Notes under the pieces: model-generated
What the model was told of the DNA's origin: nothing
Database searches by the model: none
The model's input: the letters and a program-made list of their open reading frames with translations, nothing else
In this document: positions 1 to 18,428 of the stretch, piece after piece
Layout: each line of letters starts with the position of its first letter
How positions within the stretch are numbered: position 1 is the first letter of the stretch
IMG/VR virus record: IMGVR_UViG_637000104_000001
From: a virus
Lineage: Duplodnaviria > Heunggongvirae > Uroviricota > Caudoviricetes
Direction: 5' to 3' (one strand)
Length of the DNA stretch: 41,687 bases
Made by a program: the position numbers and the translations under genes

Positions 1-3091
<3,091 letters not shown>

Positions 3092-3102
<11 letters not shown>

Positions 3103-7227: not shown

Positions 7228-7605
7228 TTACGCAGGTAGGTAAAGATATGATTGTGGTGGCTTAATATTACTACCTAGAGCAGAGATAGGAATTGGTTCT
7301 TTATATCTTTCCACTTCACCAATTTTTATTGCGTAGGCCTTTTCTCTACCTGAATAATATGAGTCATAAAATTGCTTAGAAATACCTGCGTGTTTTTCCG
7401 TCTTTTTCCAAAGAGATTCCGGTTCGTCACTTAGTATTGATTCAATACGGAATTGACCAACAACTTTACCTAATGGCATCGTGGCATAAATAACAACGGT
7501 GCTAATTTGCGGATTTTTGAATATACCTTTACGAAACTCGAACCGCTTTGTTCCGTTCAATATTTTTTCTGCAAACTCAGGCTTAATGGATAATAAAACT
7601 TTCAT
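7228..7605 (-). CDS. ASCH-domain protein (PUA-like fold), 125 aa
   Basis: N-terminal MKVLLSIKPEFAEKILNGTKRFEFRKG resembles the ASCH signature (..SIK..wAe.I..G.K..E.R); overlaps the upstream ORF by 23 nt. Confidence 0.6.
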   Translation of the reverse strand: MKVLLSIKPEFAEKILNGTKRFEFRKGIFKNPQISTVVIYATMPLGKVVGQFRIESILSDEPESLWKKTEKHAGISKQFYDSYYSGREKAYAIKIGEVERYKEPIPISALGSNIKPPQSYLYLPA

Positions 7606-8656
7606 TTATCTTGCCTAACTCGATGATCTTTAAGAACTGCTCATTTGTGAGTTTAAAGTGACTCCATCGGAATGCACGCGAACCATTTAGCCCCACATGA
7701 TCTATTAAAATAGCACGATTGGGTCTCTTTGGCAAAGACAGATTGTATGTGAATCTTATAATGAAAGGGTATCGACGTTCTTTATAGATTTTTCTGAGTT
7801 CATCTTCAGAAAATACGCTAAAACGAATACAATAGTCTACAAAACTATCTTCGCTTAAAAATTCAGAAATATTTTTTACGCTCTCAACTACACATAATGT
7901 ACTGGCTACAGAACGATAGCGAGCTGGCCCTTTTTTGTCTCCGGTTCTATAGATGACAATGATATCTCCTCTTTTCATTCCCATCACAGAACGCATTCCA
8001 CATATGTAAATTTTATGAATGCTGTTAGCATGGGATATATCTTTGACAATATCTGGTGATTCATTTACAAGTTTTGAATCAGGGAATAGTCTAGTGTGAT
8101 ATTCGGGATAAATCGCCAGTAAATATTTGTTGGCCCTTGATGTCATTATTCGAGGGTAATCTAATAAAATATCACCATAAGGCTCATGCAAAGACCTCGC
8201 ATATACAAACTCTTTCCCGTTATGTGTTTCTTTTTCACCATGAATGTAAAATCCGTACGTTTGGAAAAGTTTTATTAGATGGACGTGTTTGTCGAAAACA
8301 GTAACATAAATATCATCAGATTTTGATGAAAATGCATGGTCAAACGCTTTTTTTAGAAATCGTTGTCCGCGAAGGGTGCCTTTAGATTCAAATTTGAATG
8401 TTCCTATCTTTAGATGACGTCCTGGTGGGAGCGCTGGATTAATGTCATTTGCATCATCATTTTCTTTTAGATACATAAAACCTTCGATTTTATGCTTGTC
8501 ATCATAGAGCACATAAGCTGATTCTCCTTCTCTGGCTTTTTTTTCTAACCAAAGAGGAAACTCTTTATAATCTTTTTTTAAAGAGTCAAAAAATGGGTCA
8601 TTGTGATCAAAATCAGAGAATTTCTCATATTTTAAAGTATCCATTAAGTTCTCCAT
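7583..8656 (-). CDS. GNAT-like acetyltransferase-fold protein with unassigned C-terminal domain, 357 aa (alternative start at Met5)
   Basis: N-terminal half has GNAT-like elements (LKIGTFKFESKGTLRGQRFLKKAF; LIKLFQTYGFYIHGE resembling the a..LY.k.GF motif). Sits directly downstream of the repressor gene on the same strand. Fold assignment is from motif reading only. Confidence 0.45.
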   Translation of the reverse strand: MENLMDTLKYEKFSDFDHNDPFFDSLKKDYKEFPLWLEKKAREGESAYVLYDDKHKIEGFMYLKENDDANDINPALPPGRHLKIGTFKFESKGTLRGQRFLKKAFDHAFSSKSDDIYVTVFDKHVHLIKLFQTYGFYIHGEKETHNGKEFVYARSLHEPYGDILLDYPRIMTSRANKYLLAIYPEYHTRLFPDSKLVNESPDIVKDISHANSIHKIYICGMRSVMGMKRGDIIVIYRTGDKKGPARYRSVASTLCVVESVKNISEFLSEDSFVDYCIRFSVFSEDELRKIYKERRYPFIIRFTYNLSLPKRPNRAILIDHVGLNGSRAFRWSHFKLTNEQFLKIIELGKINESFIIH

Positions 8657-10325: not shown

Positions 10326-11341
10326 CAGGTTCAGAAATGGCGAAAGCCGGTCTGCGCGAACAGAACCGACTTTCAGGTGCAAATCGTAACACACTCATTG
10401 CGGGAGGAATTATGGCAAACACTGCTGAGATATTCAATTTTCCAGTGCCGGATGTGGCACAAAAGGAGCCGCGCGTGGCAGATCTCGATGATGGTTATAC
10501 GCGCATTGCAAATGAGTTGCTGGAAGCTGTGATGCTGGCCGGATTAACACAGCACCAGCTTCTGGTCTTCCTGGCTGTCATGCGCAAAACATATGGCTTT
10601 AATAAAAAACTGGATTGGGTGAGCAACGAGCAACTTTCCGAGTTGACCGGGATATTGCCGCACAAGTGTTCTGCTGCAAAAAGTGTTCTGGTAAAGCGTG
10701 GGATTTTTATTCAGAGCGGGCGGAATATCGGCATTAATAATGTGGTCAGTGAATGGTCAACATTACCCGAATCAGGTAAGAAAAATAAAGTTTACCTGAA
10801 AGAGGTAAATTTACCTGAATCAGGTAAGAAAAGTTTACCCAAATCAGGTAAAGACGTTTACCCGAATCAGGTAAACACAAAAGACAAACTAACAAAAGAC
10901 AATATAAAACCTTTTTCGTCCGAGAATTCTGGCGAATCCTCTGACCAGCCAGAAAACGATCTTCCTGTGGTGAAACCGGATGCTGCAATTCAGAGCGGCA
11001 GCAAGTGGGGGACAGCAGAAGACCTGACCGCCGCAGAGTGGATGTTTGACATGGTGAAGACCATCGCGCCATCAGCCAGAAAACCGAATTTTGCAGGGTG
11101 GGCCAACGACATCCGCCTGATGCGTGAGCGTGACGGGCGTAACCATCGCGACATGTGCGTTCTGTTCCGCTGGGCCTGCCAGGACAACTTCTGGTCCGGT
11201 AACGTGCTGAGTCCAGCAAAACTCCGCGACAAGTGGACTCAGCTCGAAATTAACCGCAACAAGCAACAGGCTGGTGTGACTGCCAGCAAACCAAAACTCG
11301 ACCTGACAAACACTGACTGGATTTACGGGGTGGAGCTATGA
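10322..11341 (+). CDS. O: Replication initiator O (alternative start at 10412 with GGGAGG RBS)
   Basis: ADLDDGYTR..LLEA....LT..Q..V.LA..RKTYG.NK matches the lambda O N-terminal domain; contains the iteron origin internally; ATGA overlap with the upstream stop. Confidence 0.85.
   Translation: MTGSEMAKAGLREQNRLSGANRNTLIAGGIMANTAEIFNFPVPDVAQKEPRVADLDDGYTRIANELLEAVMLAGLTQHQLLVFLAVMRKTYGFNKKLDWVSNEQLSELTGILPHKCSAAKSVLVKRGIFIQSGRNIGINNVVSEWSTLPESGKKNKVYLKEVNLPESGKKSLPKSGKDVYPNQVNTKDKLTKDNIKPFSSENSGESSDQPENDLPVVKPDAAIQSGSKWGTAEDLTAAEWMFDMVKTIAPSARKPNFAGWANDIRLMRERDGRNHRDMCVLFRWACQDNFWSGNVLSPAKLRDKWTQLEINRNKQQAGVTASKPKLDLTNTDWIYGVEL
10763..10915 (+). repeat. Replication origin: 4-5 iterons (approx. 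TTACCCGAATCAGGTAA, each internally palindromic) followed by an AT-rich stretch
   Basis: Direct repeats at about 10763-10780, 10791-10809, 10811-10828, 10834-10853 and 10857-10876, then AT-rich 10877-10915; located inside O as in ori-lambda. Confidence 0.75.
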
Positions 11342-12051
11342 AAAATATTGCCGCGCAGATGATTAACTTTGACCGTGAGCAGATGCGTCGAATCGCCAAC
11401 AACATGCCGGAACAATACGACGAAAAGCCGCAGGTGCAGCAGGTGGCGCAGATCATCAACGGTGTGTTCAGCCAGCTGCTTGCGACATTTCCGGCAAGCC
11501 TCGCGAACCGCGACCAGAACGAGCTGAACGAAATCCGCCGTCAGTGGGTTATGGCTTTCCGTGAAAATGGAATTACCACTATGGAGCAGGTTAACGCCGG
11601 AATGCGCGTGGCCCGCCGACAGGAGCGACCATTCCTGCCGTCGCCCGGCCAGTTCGTAGCGTGGTGTAAGCAGAGTGGCGGGGCGTTAGGTATCACTGTT
11701 GACCAAGTCATAACCGAATACTGGGATTGGCGTAATCGTTCCTTCGAATTCACTTCCAGCGAGCATTTCCCGTGGTCACAGCCTGTCATGTACCACATCT
11801 GCGTCGAACTGCGCCACCGCAGCACAGAGCGCCAGTTAACGCATGGTGAGCTGGCGCGTGAAGCCGGCGATCTGCTGGACATGTGGGAGAGGCGCGTCAC
11901 CGAGGGCAAACCAGTACCGCCTGTGCGCCGGGCGATTGCAGCACCGGCTGCCGAGCATGGCCCGACGCCAATCCAGCTGCTTCAGGCGAAGTACAACCGC
12001 AACAAGTCGAACGGGATGGTGCGAAGTGGTAAAGAAGATAATAAAGAATAA
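11338..12051 (+). CDS. P: Replication protein P (helicase loader); lambda-like N-terminal half, divergent C-terminal half
   Basis: First ~110 aa near-identical to lambda P (MKNIAAQM.NFDREQMRRIANNMPEQYDEKPQVQQVAQIINGVFSQLLATF...); the sequence diverges after ..FVAWC. Confidence 0.85.
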   Translation: MKNIAAQMINFDREQMRRIANNMPEQYDEKPQVQQVAQIINGVFSQLLATFPASLANRDQNELNEIRRQWVMAFRENGITTMEQVNAGMRVARRQERPFLPSPGQFVAWCKQSGGALGITVDQVITEYWDWRNRSFEFTSSEHFPWSQPVMYHICVELRHRSTERQLTHGELAREAGDLLDMWERRVTEGKPVPPVRRAIAAPAAEHGPTPIQLLQAKYNRNKSNGMVRSGKEDNKE

Positions 12052-12129
12052 TATTTAGGGTTATAGGTCTTAGCCCATTTTAAATGGAAGGCAGACATGC
12101 AGCCATGCATACTTCGCATGGCAACATAA

Positions 12130-12558
12130 TTATTTAGACAAACTATCTAATTTCTGCGTCGCTTTTTGTGTTAGGTCGCTGTAACTGATAAACCCTACGT
12201 TAGCACCTACAATTAACACTAAGAACACTAAGCTGCATATGGATAGAGTGGCAGATTTATGCTTATGGAAAACAAAATATGCTACTATTGCACTTAATAT
12301 GAAGGAAATGAATAGAAATATAGATGTTGATGTTTTTAGATATTTTTCAGGAAATAATGGGTGAGCAATAATGTATACAAGATTAAGTAGTATATAAATT
12401 GCTACCGGAATGAAAATCATGCTCCAGTGTGTATCTTTTTTGGGAGGGATTGGCTGCAAATAATCAGACACCGTTTTTCCATCAGTTTCAAGAAGAATTA
12501 CTAGATCTCTTACTTCACCACTGACTTGAGTGCCATCCTTAGTAGTAATGTTAATCAT
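12130..12558 (-). CDS. Small integral membrane protein (about 142 aa, three predicted TM helices)
   Basis: Hydrophobic segments IFIPVAIYILLNLVYIIA, IFLFISFILSAIVAYFVF and LSICSLVFLVLIVGANVGFI. Start chosen at the ATG forming an ATGA overlap with the upstream stop (12555-12558). Antisense to the replication operon. Confidence 0.5.
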   Translation of the reverse strand: MINITTKDGTQVSGEVRDLVILLETDGKTVSDYLQPIPPKKDTHWSMIFIPVAIYILLNLVYIIAHPLFPEKYLKTSTSIFLFISFILSAIVAYFVFHKHKSATLSICSLVFLVLIVGANVGFISYSDLTQKATQKLDSLSK

Positions 12559-12932
12559 TTTTTCCCTCCAAATACGATTCCCTCTACGTCTTTGGAAGCT
12601 TTTTGTGATGACCACTCCTCTGAATCAGGTGATTTAATTAAAAATATTGTATCTCCATCAAAAATCGTATTTGTTCCGTAAAAATTTACATTTGATAGAT
12701 CACCACCAAAAACCCTCTGCCCACTCGAGGTAATTGCCTCACCTAATTTAGTAAAATTACCTGCAATAGATGATTTTCTTTTTCCACTTCTATTCAAAGT
12801 GGCTTTAATTACACCACCACCATCCTTAGAGTTAAATAATTGAATGTCCACTCCAGCAGTTGGTTGTATATATTTTGAAAGCTCTTTCTTGAACTTGTTA
12901 ATATATTTATCTTTGTTTTCTTTGTTGGTCAT
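12555..12932 (-). CDS. Hypothetical soluble protein, 125 aa, Gly-rich
   Basis: ORF translationally coupled to the downstream membrane protein gene; no recognised motif. Confidence 0.45.
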   Translation of the reverse strand: MTNKENKDKYINKFKKELSKYIQPTAGVDIQLFNSKDGGGVIKATLNRSGKRKSSIAGNFTKLGEAITSSGQRVFGGDLSNVNFYGTNTIFDGDTIFLIKSPDSEEWSSQKASKDVEGIVFGGKK

Positions 12933-13199
12933 TGGTTAGATCCATAGTTCTGGCTGTGATTAGGTGAAAGTATACAAGGTTTTTAAAGCGAAGATCACTG
13001 TTTTGGCTTCAAGATAGTTTTGATTTATCGTAATCAATCCGCCATAATCCTCTCATCGGAGCCTGAACAACTCCGGTGACTTCTGCGCATTTAAGGGGAC
13101 TTAAATGCGACCACAATCTGAACTCATCACCTTGTCACAGATGCAGAAATGCACCTGCGATGTCTTGCATCCAGCGTTTGATCTCTGCGGAGGTGAAGC

Positions 13200-13655
13200 G
13201 TGAACCTCCCACAAGATGGCATCAAATTACATCGCGGTAACTTCACCGCTGTCGGTCAGCAGATCCAGACTTATCTGGAAGACGGCAAATGCTTTCGCAT
13301 GGTGCTTAAACCGTGGCGCGAGAGACGCAGTCTTTCCCAGAATGCACTCAGCCACATGTGGTACAGCGAAATCAGTGAATACCTCATCAGCAGGGGTAAA
13401 ACGTTCGCCACTCCAGCTTGGGTAAAAGATGCTCTCAAACACACATATCTCGGTTATGAAACCAAAGACCTGGTTGATGTCGTAACCGGTGATATCACCA
13501 CTATCCAGTCGTTACGCCATACCTCCGATCTTGATACCGGAGAGATGTATGTCTTCCTGTGTAAGGTTGAAGCCTGGGCGGTGAATATTGGCTGCCACCT
13601 GACTATTCCGCAGAGCTGCGAGTTCCAGCTGCTCCGCGACAAGCAGGAGGCGTAA
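13200..13655 (+). CDS. ninB: NinB-family recombination protein
   Basis: [17 protein letters not shown] resembles the NinB motif RSLDQNRKLWA; position after P. Confidence 0.6.
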
Positions 13656-15261: not shown

Positions 15262-16344
15262 TTAGAACTGATAAACCAGACCTACAGCGACGATGTCGTC
15301 GGTATCAATACCAGCTGTTTTGGTAAACTTACTATCGTCAATTAAGTTGATTTTGTAATCAACAAAAGTGGACATGTTTTTATTAAAGTAGTAAGTAGCA
15401 CCGACATCGACATACTTGACTAAGTCTCGGTCACCATGAACACCAAGGTCTTTACCTTTTGACTGAAGGTAAGCAACAGATGGACGCAGACCGAAGTCAA
15501 ACTGATATTGTGCTACTGCTTCAAAGTTTTGTGCTTTGTTTGCAATATGGTTATTACCAAAAACGGTCATATTCTGAGTTTCAGAATATGTGGTAGCCAG
15601 ATAGATATTGTTCGCATCATATTTCAGGCCTGCAGCCCATACTTCCGCATTTTTGCCGGAGGCATTGAATTTGCTCTTACCATAGGCGACCTGACCGTCA
15701 GTGCGATCTGATTTAGCATAGGTTGCACCCACGCCGAATCCTTCATACTCATAAGTAGTGGAGAAACCGAAACCATCACCATTGGCTTCAGTTACGTCAG
15801 TGCGGTCATTTTTACCCTGATACTGAGCAGCAAAGTTCAGGCCATCGACCAGACCAAAGAAGTCGTTGTTACGATAAGTTGCAACACCAGTAGTGCGACC
15901 AGTCATGAACACATCTGTTTGGGTCCAGGTATCACCACCGAATTCTGGCAGAACGTCAGTCCACGCACCGATGTCGTATGCTACACCGTAGTTACGGCCG
16001 TAATCGATTGAGCCGTAATCACCAAATTTCAGGCCTGCAAATGCAAGACGGGTTTTGTCTTTGGAAGAACCTTGAGATTCAGCACGGTTGCCTTTGAATT
16101 CATATTCCCACTGACCGAAACCAGTCAGTTGATCGTTGATTTGGGTTTCACCTTTGAAGCCAAGACGGGCATAAGTAGTATCACCATCATCTGCATCATT
16201 AGAGGAGAAGTAGTGCTTGGCATTAACTTTCCCGTATAGATCCAGCTTGTTACTGTCTTTATTATAAATTTCAGCTGCCTGAGCAGACATCGCCATCAGT
16301 ACTGATGCAGCTACAGCAGAAATTGCCACTGTTAATTTTTTCAT
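15262..16344 (-). CDS. nmpC: OmpC-family general porin (NmpC/OmpD-like), 360 aa
   Basis: Signal peptide [30 protein letters not shown] start of the mature protein, C-terminal VGLVYQF beta-barrel signature. Start taken at internal ATG 16344 (the ORF-track start 16404 is upstream of the signal peptide). Confidence 0.9.
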
Positions 16345-16932: not shown

Positions 16933-17148
16933 ATGAAATCCATGGATAAGTTAACAACGGGTGTCGCCTATGGTACCTCAGCAGGTAGTGCCGGGTACTG
17001 GTTTTTACAGTTGCTCGATAAAGTCACGCCCTCACAGTGGGCGGCAATAGGTGTGCTGGGTAGCCTGGTATTTGGCCTGCTGACGTACCTGACAAACCTT
17101 TATTTCAAGATTAAAGAAGATAAGCGCAAGGCTGCGAGAGGTGAATAA
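16933..17148 (+). CDS. S: Pinholin (phage 21 S21-type), dual-start motif
   Basis: 71 aa; [26 protein letters not shown]..., two TM domains; Met1/Met4 dual start as in S21-71/S21-68. Confidence 0.9.
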
Positions 17149-17645
17149 TGCCTCCATCATTACGAAAAGCCGTTGCTGCTGCTATTGGTGGCGGAGCAAT
17201 TGCTATAGCATCAGTGTTAATCACTGGCCCAAGTGGTAACGATGGTCTGGAAGGTGTCAGCTACATACCATACAAAGATATTGTTGGTGTATGGACTGTA
17301 TGTCACGGGCATACAGGAAAAGACATCATGCTCGGTAAAACGTATACCAAAGCAGAATGCAAAGCACTCCTGAATAAAGACCTTGCCACTGTCGCCAGAC
17401 AAATTAACCCGTACATCACAGTCGATATACCGGAAACAACGCGCGGCGCTCTTTACTCATTCGTTTACAACGTGGGTGCTGGTAATTTCAGAACATCGAC
17501 GCTTCTTCGCAAAATAAACCAGGGCGATATCAAAGGCTCATGTGATCAGCTACGTCGCTGGACATATGCTGGCGGTAAGCAATGGAAAGGTCTCATGACT
17601 CGTCGTGAGATTGAGCGTGAAATCTGTTTGTGGGGTCAGCAATGA
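17148..17645 (+). CDS. R: SAR endolysin (lysozyme with N-terminal signal-arrest-release domain)
   Basis: Gly/Ala-rich weakly hydrophobic N-terminus [20 protein letters not shown] followed by a lysozyme domain; ATGA-type overlaps with S and Rz. Confidence 0.9.
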
Positions 17646-18103
17646 ACAGAGTAACCGCGATTATCTCCGCTCTGGTTATCTGCATCATCGTCTGCCTGTC
17701 ATGGGCTGTTAATCATTACCGTAATAACGCCATTACCTACAAAGCCCAGCGCGACAAAAATGCCAGAGAACTGAAGCTGGCGAACGCGGCAATTACTGAC
17801 ATGCAGATGCGTCAGCGTGATGTTGCTGCGCTCGATGCAAAATACACGAAGGAGTTAGCTGATGCGAAAGCTGAAAATGATGCTCTGCGTGATGATGTTG
17901 CCGCTGGTCGTCGTCGGTTGCACATCAAAGCAGTCTGTCAGTCAGTGCGTGAAGCCACCACCGCCTCCGGCGTGGATAATGCAGCCTCCCCCCGACTGGC
18001 AGACACCGCTGAACGGGATTATTTCACCCTCAGAGAGAGGCTGATCACTATGCAAAAACAACTGGAAGGAACCCAGAAGTATATTAATGAGCAGTGCAGA
18101 TAG
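17642..18103 (+). CDS. Rz: i-spanin Rz
   Basis: N-terminal TM segment, coiled-coil periplasmic domain; start ATG 17642 overlapping the R stop. Confidence 0.85.
17862..18044 (+). CDS. Rz1: o-spanin Rz1 (lipoprotein embedded in the +1 frame of Rz)
   Basis: Lipobox LVVVGC, proline-rich mature peptide ([15 protein letters not shown]); entirely inside Rz. Confidence 0.85.
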
Positions 18104-18134: not shown

Positions 18135-18428
18135 TTATTGTGAGCAATACACACGCGCTTCCAGCGGAGTATAAATGCCTAAAGTAATAAAACCGAGCAA
18201 TCCATTTACGAATGTTTGCTGGGTTTCTGTTTTAACAACATTTTCTGCACCACCACAAATTTTTGCTGCATCGACAGTTTTCTTCTGCCCAATTCCCGAA
18301 ACGAAGAAATGATGGGTGATGGTTTCCTTTGGTGTTACTGCTGTAGGTTTGTTTCCAACAGTAAACGTCTGTTGAGCACATCCTGTAATAAGCATTGCCA
18401 GAGCGGCAGAAAACAACATTTTTTTCAT
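18135..18428 (-). CDS. bor: Bor outer-membrane lipoprotein (serum-resistance-associated), 97 aa
   Basis: MKKMLFSAALAMLITGCAQQTFTV... lipobox; matches remembered lambda Bor; start taken at internal ATG 18428. Confidence 0.88.
   Translation of the reverse strand: MKKMLFSAALAMLITGCAQQTFTVGNKPTAVTPKETITHHFFVSGIGQKKTVDAAKICGGAENVVKTETQQTFVNGLLGFITLGIYTPLEARVYCSQ

Follow-up and report, generated by a model that had tools for sequence, protein, structure and literature searches.

What do two small genes that run against the early operon of a lambdoid prophage, in the place where phage lambda carries ren, do for the phage or its host? The question arose from a preliminary description of a viral stretch of 41,687 nucleotides (IMG/VR record IMGVR_UViG_637000104_000001; hereafter the window), which proposed that an antisense pair between P and ninB, here called the cassette with its genes A and B, encodes an exclusion, abortive-infection or toxin-antitoxin system. 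The window is identical to positions 1187383-1229069 of Escherichia coli 536 (NC_008253.1) and represents a lambdoid prophage. Its integrase gene is split by an IS100 insertion (istA/istB; window 1-3102), which probably prevents excision of the prophage. The early-right operon on the plus strand comprises a cro-like gene, a YdaT-like gene, the gene of an O-type replication protein, and P (11338-12051). Downstream of the cassette follow a 32-codon ORF (13105-13203), ninB/ybcN (13200-13655), ninE, ybcO, rusA, ylcG, and the antiterminator gene quuD. The features on which the analysis is built are listed by their positions in the window:

12115-13018, minus strand: AT-rich inserted block, made up of the cassette and its own 5' and 3' non-coding ends (composition and limits of nucleotide homology)
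12555-12932, minus strand: gene A, 125-aa soluble basic protein, WP_000182282.1, phrog_18061 (ORF, RefSeq annotation, dN/dS)
12130-12558, minus strand: gene B, 142-aa inner-membrane protein, WP_000608370.1, phrog_16940 (ORF, annotation, hydropathy, AF2, dN/dS)
12555-12558, minus strand: ATGA stop/start overlap of A and B, a site of translational coupling (sequence)
12565-12569, minus strand: GGAGG Shine-Dalgarno of B, 6 nt before its ATG (read from the sequence)
12969-12974, minus strand: TATACT, candidate -10 of a promoter belonging to the cassette, 36 nt 5' of the ATG of A (conservation)
12097-12127, minus strand: hairpin whose core is GCCATGC/GCATGGC, a few bases 3' of the stop of B (-16.6 kcal/mol, z -2.8)
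13019-13210, plus strand: nin leader, context outside the cassette, common to lambdoid phages and present in about 2,700 complete E. coli genomes

The cassette stands out from its surroundings by composition. Across 12000-13050 the G+C content was 0.33-0.37 (about 34% in the block) versus 0.50-0.60 on both flanks, in agreement with the AT-rich block described earlier, and homology with other lambdoid phages resumes at about 13019. The slot was confirmed as that of lambda ren by the lambda gene order P-ren-NinB. Further accessory genes on the minus strand were observed elsewhere in the prophage. An ASCH-domain gene overlaps a gene for a 353-aa hypothetical protein between the kil-like gene and the repressor gene (7228-8644); this second accessory pair, also uncharacterised, occupies a position classic for morons. 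An OmpC-like porin gene lies between Q and the lysis genes (15262-16344) and an iss/bor lipoprotein gene after the lysis genes (18135-18428), both as antisense morons.

Both reading frames were found on the minus strand where they had been placed, and RefSeq annotates two hypothetical proteins at the same two coordinates. When the region was shuffled 2000 times, a stop-free run of at least 125 codons arose in 0.55% of the shuffles. The product of A is soluble and glycine-rich, as had been described, with 15 glycines among 125 residues, no hydrophobic segment (maximum KD19 of 0.43), and a pI of 9.5. The product of B is laid out as an N-terminal soluble domain of about 40 residues, three transmembrane helices, and a charged C-terminal helix; its hydrophobic segments, with centres near residues 56, 87, and 115, correspond to the three helices noted at the outset. 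Weak AF2 models were obtained for both proteins, with a pLDDT of 58.5 for A and 67.7 for B (helices at residues 44-68, 71-100, and 103-141), and fold searches with either model returned generic matches only. An extension of B to 161 aa from a GTG at 12615, present in the ORF list, was rejected for the 142-aa form, which is preferred because GGAGG precedes the ATG at 12558 and all homologues start there. A role of B as a class I holin was likewise rejected: B maps to the early region, on the other strand, and gave no match to a holin family of Pfam, while holin, lysozyme, and Rz genes are present as the prophage's own lysis genes at 16933-18103.

Escherichia, Shigella, Enterobacter, and Klebsiella yielded close relatives of both proteins, at 67-92% identity for A and 60-99% for B. 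When the window copy was compared with three diverged copies, dN/dS was 0.07-0.12 for A and 0.09-0.14 for B, at dS values above 1 that are near saturation. Both genes are under strong purifying selection, as ratios of 0.07-0.14 at near-saturated synonymous sites indicate.

The ATGA overlap proposed earlier is present at 12555-12558. The same 4-nt overlap of A and B was found in loci L002-L011 and L025-L028, and an overlap of 1 nt in L012. The GGAGG of B falls within the conserved GGKK C-terminal codons of A (12559-12569, minus strand), of which residues G122, G123, and K124 are invariant among close homologues. This conservation may reflect the RNA signal of B rather than the protein encoded by A.

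The region upstream of A had been taken as a non-coding gap of 267 bp (12933-13199) that could hold a promoter of the cassette. About 190 bp of it turned out to be the conserved nin leader, including an annotated ORF, and about 85 bp (12933-13018) belong to the cassette. The leader contains a promoter-like site upstream of ninB (TTGATT-17-CATAAT, 13020-13048, plus strand), a perfect 10-bp palindrome at 13086-13109, and the 32-codon ORF that RefSeq annotates at 13105-13203 ahead of ninB/ybcN. Its promoter-like site corresponds to the “putative -35/-10” in the record of phage 82 (X92588), and the leader also matches the “possible regulator-binding site” given there. Since ninB may thus have a promoter of its own, transcripts from pR may or may not have to cross the cassette to reach Q, whereas such read-through had been described at first as a necessity. 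For the cassette itself, the suggested promoter stands in part. The hexamer TATACT lies inside an unbroken AAAAACCTTGTATACTTTC that is identical in E. coli and Enterobacter copies, while the adjoining bases vary. In the diverged cassette type, an extended -10, TGATATAGT, stands 39 nt before the ATG of its A, and TGATATAGT is kept between L002-type copies and L012 despite differing flanks. Against this, the -35 is poor and a consensus promoter scan did not call the TATACT site. By its conservation, the hexamer is thus a candidate -10-like element of a cassette promoter.

At the other end of the cassette, the hairpin after B was found with the same core and longer stems in L002 (-27.5 kcal/mol, z -7.0) and L012 (-22.7 kcal/mol, z -5.3), where the flanks differ, and the core was found in all cassette types. 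It has no U-tract and is therefore not a canonical intrinsic terminator; a possible role is that of a transcript end, an RNA stabiliser, or a recombination joint. A terminator-like hairpin followed by ATTTTAAATG was observed separately on the plus strand at 12058-12076, just after the stop of P and facing the cassette, and is conserved in Enterobacter copies. It could limit read-through from pR into the cassette.

The arrangement was constant among carriers. In every prophage examined, A is followed by B, and the pair runs against the early operon, with the replication module on one side and the nin genes on the other. These lambdoid carriers span three genera (Escherichia, Enterobacter, and Klebsiella), and they differ in their replication modules, which are of the O/P, DnaB-type helicase, or IstB/DnaC-type, as well as in the first nin gene, which encodes NinB or a DUF1367 protein. 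Nucleotide homology among diverged copies is confined to 12115-12941, which takes in both genes and some 15 bp beyond B. Comparison of these copies supports the view that A and B move as a unit between prophages with different replication modules. In locus L012 (3665-5348 and 7118-8971), the replication/nin slot was observed to hold colicin-like and colicin-immunity-like genes, a DndB-family gene, and HNH genes as well. With these further genes next to A and B, the slot fits a variable cargo site.

Among 5426 complete E. coli genomes, 48 carry the pair, 46 of them in the form of this copy (at least 99% identity) and two in the diverged type. It occurs in uropathogenic and other host-associated Enterobacteriaceae, and tblastn searches with A and B gave no match among INPHARED phages or PLSDB plasmids. 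The genes are not degenerate remnants, a possibility that had been raised at first: both are intact in 14 of 17 IMG/VR loci and in all inspected genome copies. In two of the exceptions, L035 (at about 4400) and L042 (at about 4535), deletion of one base puts B out of frame and leaves A intact; these frameshifts could be assembly errors. In the third, L047 (4146-4393), A is interrupted at about codon 48 by an IS-like end, which we take to be that of IS1.

Beyond these close copies, a wider family emerged when a profile built from nine A sequences was run against 1.84 billion cluster representatives (E of at most 1e-3). It comprised 111 representatives, most of them 120-135 aa long and matched over their full length at 20-42% identity. 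Conserved positions of A are Y10, G39, F84, G86, T87, N88, I99, K100, W107, and D115, and the motifs Y.NNFR, F.GTN, LIK, and EW...A..DV recur through the family. All 61 aligned members matched phrog_18061, a group annotated as of unknown function. A scan of IMG/VR with the distant member P0140 found nothing.

Every distant A with readable downstream sequence is directly followed by a B-like gene, although three of these partners, that of L013 among them, are cut by the contig end. Loci with A and a B-like gene are L013, L014, L017, L019, L021, L022, and L024. The complete B-like partners (123-138 aa) have three transmembrane helices with a basic loop between helices 2 and 3, and a short N-terminal domain with the consensus M-K-I-G-x-x-E-G-T-P-x-E-I-K-D-F ... 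D-Y-L. The B of the window matched those of L017 and L014 in phmmer with E-values of 3e-26 and 2e-8, respectively. In an alignment with L014 and L017 over their full length and with the partial L013, residues G14, G27, Y33, W45, P51, K99, and K101 are invariant. The features that mark membership, a K-x-K loop between the second and third helices and a DYL-like motif, are present in the B of the window, and the same architecture was found in L021, L022, and L024.

The genomic settings of these loci were diverse. L022 is a phage contig in which the pair lies antisense between the portal gene and sigma-factor/terminase genes. At L017/L018, the pair adjoins what reads in translation as a replication-initiator-like gene, a reading made with no family match. 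L014 is an isolated two-gene island beside genes with a weak PIN match and with DUF4160/DUF2442 matches, which can be read as toxin-antitoxin-type genes. In L021 and L024, the pair stands among housekeeping genes and not in defence islands. Two fusions were identified, each from only one or two short metagenomic contigs. P0104 (447 aa; L015, 246-1589) joins an A domain to a following HNH nuclease domain (PF01844), and P0149 (273 aa) is an in-frame fusion of A and its B. By the latter, A is assigned to the membrane face on which the N-terminus of B lies. Taken together, phages, plasmid-like elements, and isolated chromosomal sites all harbour members of the unnamed family to which A and B belong.

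Searches of family databases did not link A or B to any characterised system. Neither protein matched a family of Pfam, NCBIfam, or PADLOC-DB v2.0.0, whose screen covers systems described up to 2023, and the one PHROG of each is annotated as of unknown function. The wider set of A with 60 distant homologues added nothing meaningful: the 61 members gave no credible Pfam match, and in PADLOC only three single-member matches at chance level (E of 0.002 or weaker). Sequence-profile searches of the PDB with the A and B profiles returned chance matches only. The pair was not mentioned in the literature searched by accession, locus tag, and PHROG identifier, or in the DefensePredictor supplements; the work on prophage defences by Brenes and Laub 2025 lay outside the scope of that search.

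The layout of the pair had been likened to RexA/RexB, and RexA, RexB, Ren, GhoS, and GhoT were therefore taken from annotated records and compared by hhalign, with all probabilities below 2%. Membership in RexAB was rejected, with 1.4% over 20 columns for the B alignment against lambda RexB and 0.03% for the A profile against RexA. By depolarising the membrane, RexAB excludes phages of the T4 rII type and others. Like A and B, it is a two-gene prophage unit of a soluble protein and a polytopic inner-membrane protein of about 140 aa, and it is expressed in the lysogen from a strand or promoter apart from the lytic operons, as is presumed for the cassette. The differences are substantial: RexA has 279 aa and A 125, RexB has four transmembrane helices whereas B has three and an N-terminal soluble domain, and RexAB resides in the lambda immunity region in contrast to the P/ninB junction. 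Homology to Ren was rejected at 0.14% for A, with only the genomic slot in common. Ren protects lambda from Rex and is part of a phage-exclusion interplay. Its gene is, like the cassette, a non-essential accessory between P and ninB, but it is a single gene for 96 aa on the strand of the early operon, whereas the cassette has two genes on the opposite strand.

GhoS/GhoT was rejected at 0.6 and 0.7%, respectively. It shares with A and B a compact operon in which the soluble protein comes first and the membrane protein second. However, GhoT is a peptide of 57 aa, compared with 142 aa and a conserved soluble domain in B. GhoS is an RNase acting on the ghoT mRNA, and nothing in A suggests such an action on the mRNA of its partner. 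The logic of a cytoplasmic partner with a small multi-pass membrane protein is further shared with Kiwa (KwaA/KwaB), Rst_Hydrolase-3Tm, and the CBASS and retron types with transmembrane effectors, as are carriage in phage or satellite hotspots and a patchy distribution. The sensor or enzyme partners in all these systems are much larger than A, which has no recognisable catalytic domain. The likeness of the cassette to RexAB and to membrane-effector defence pairs is thus one of layout only. Of the initial proposal, the self-contained accessory cassette held up, being AT-rich, antisense, moving as a unit, and having a candidate promoter of its own, while kinship with RexAB did not: remote homology searches gave no relative among RexAB, Ren, GhoST, the PDB, Pfam, or PADLOC.

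A and B are translationally coupled, strongly selected, and always inherited together as A then B. From their layout and context, we tentatively favour the reading that they form an autonomous accessory operon, a moron, which is expressed in the lysogen and serves in exclusion or abortive infection through a membrane effector. The operon would be transcribed in the lysogen from its own weak sigma-70 promoter. A would be a sensor or regulator in the cytoplasm, bound to the N-terminal domain that B exposes there, and B would be the inner-membrane effector. Upon infection, the incoming phage would trigger A, and B would then either compromise the membrane (abortive infection) or block DNA entry (exclusion). 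During prophage induction, pR transcription converging on the cassette would cross it in antisense and dampen its expression, which would amount to a built-in avoidance of self-harm.

Several observations are in line with such a module. The inactivating point mutations of L035 and L042 were seen only in B, with A intact, the fusion of A to an HNH domain in P0104 resembles a swap of effectors, and the L022 pair again lies antisense inside a phage. Its accessory nature is indicated by the 34% G+C, the occurrence in 48 of 5426 E. coli genomes, and a slot with varied occupants. Against it stand the lack of homology to defence, exclusion, or toxin families in the searches above and the position of the distant members L021 and L024 among housekeeping genes. 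The functional reading appears reasonable in view of layout and context. A combination of a soluble partner and a small membrane effector is of a known kind, drawn here from protein families without known relatives; small accessory pairs of this sort are numerous, and no new principle is indicated. A bolder version is doubtful: that A and B represent a new, widespread but thin family of anti-phage immunity, in which the sensor A is combined with interchangeable effectors (the three-helix B, occasionally HNH) and antisense placement serves as a self-silencing switch, on in the lysogen and off in the lytic carrier.

The main rival to the exclusion or abortive-infection module is a toxin-antitoxin or addiction pair, with B as a membrane-damaging toxin and A as its coupled protein antitoxin, which would stabilise the carrier and affect phages only secondarily. 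The two readings overlap in mechanism, and we rank the addiction pair second and consider it rather unlikely. Many toxin-antitoxin operons share the order of a soluble gene followed by a small membrane protein with an ATGA overlap, and the occurrence on diverse mobile elements and isolated islands, including L014 beside genes read as toxin-antitoxin-type, would fit as well. The same is true of the loss of B by point mutation with A intact, and of a prophage that is retained although its integrase is split by IS100. However, no similarity was found to GhoS/GhoT or to the toxin-antitoxin families of Pfam, NCBIfam, and PADLOC, and a Pfam scan of A detected no DNA-binding motif of the kind usual in type II antitoxins. 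With 142 aa and a conserved soluble N-terminal domain, B is also larger and more elaborate than typical membrane-peptide toxins, and the interruption of A by an IS in L047 would be tolerable only if expression of B were lost too.

Lysogenic conversion is less probable still. According to this explanation, the two proteins make up a small membrane complex, which alters the physiology of the host envelope, such as stress tolerance, transport, or virulence fitness. The OmpC-like porin and Iss show that the same prophage carries morons for host fitness, the pair occurs in uropathogenic and other host-associated Enterobacteriaceae, and some distant homologues lie among housekeeping genes. The family, however, spans very different bacteria and environments (metagenomes), which is a poor fit to a niche-specific virulence trait, the HNH nuclease fusion fits conflict systems better, and B is unlike any transporter family. 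Least probable of all, and in our view very improbable, is a role in the carrier phage's own cycle, be it in the control of replication, in nin/Q expression through antisense transcription, or in the timing of lysis. Such a role could be read from the position of the cassette, which in all lambdoid copies separates replication from nin/Q and is antisense, from its promoter region back to back with the putative nin promoter, and from the size and helix count of B, which approach those of a class I holin. Yet the cassette is found in about 1% of E. coli genomes compared with about half for the nin leader and is consequently dispensable for this type of phage, homologous pairs occur outside phages, and strong selection at the protein level implies that the products matter and not the act of transcription alone.

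If A and B are only a toxin-antitoxin pair or an envelope moron, the cassette would be an ordinary accessory module, albeit from a family as yet without a name. Should it instead exclude phages or abort infection, as in the preferred reading, it would be a compact system of about 0.8 kb built from two protein families without known relatives, and the replication/nin junction of lambdoid prophages would be a place to look for similar cargo. Its antisense placement would offer a simple and testable route by which a harmful effector is kept off during the lytic cycle of its carrier.
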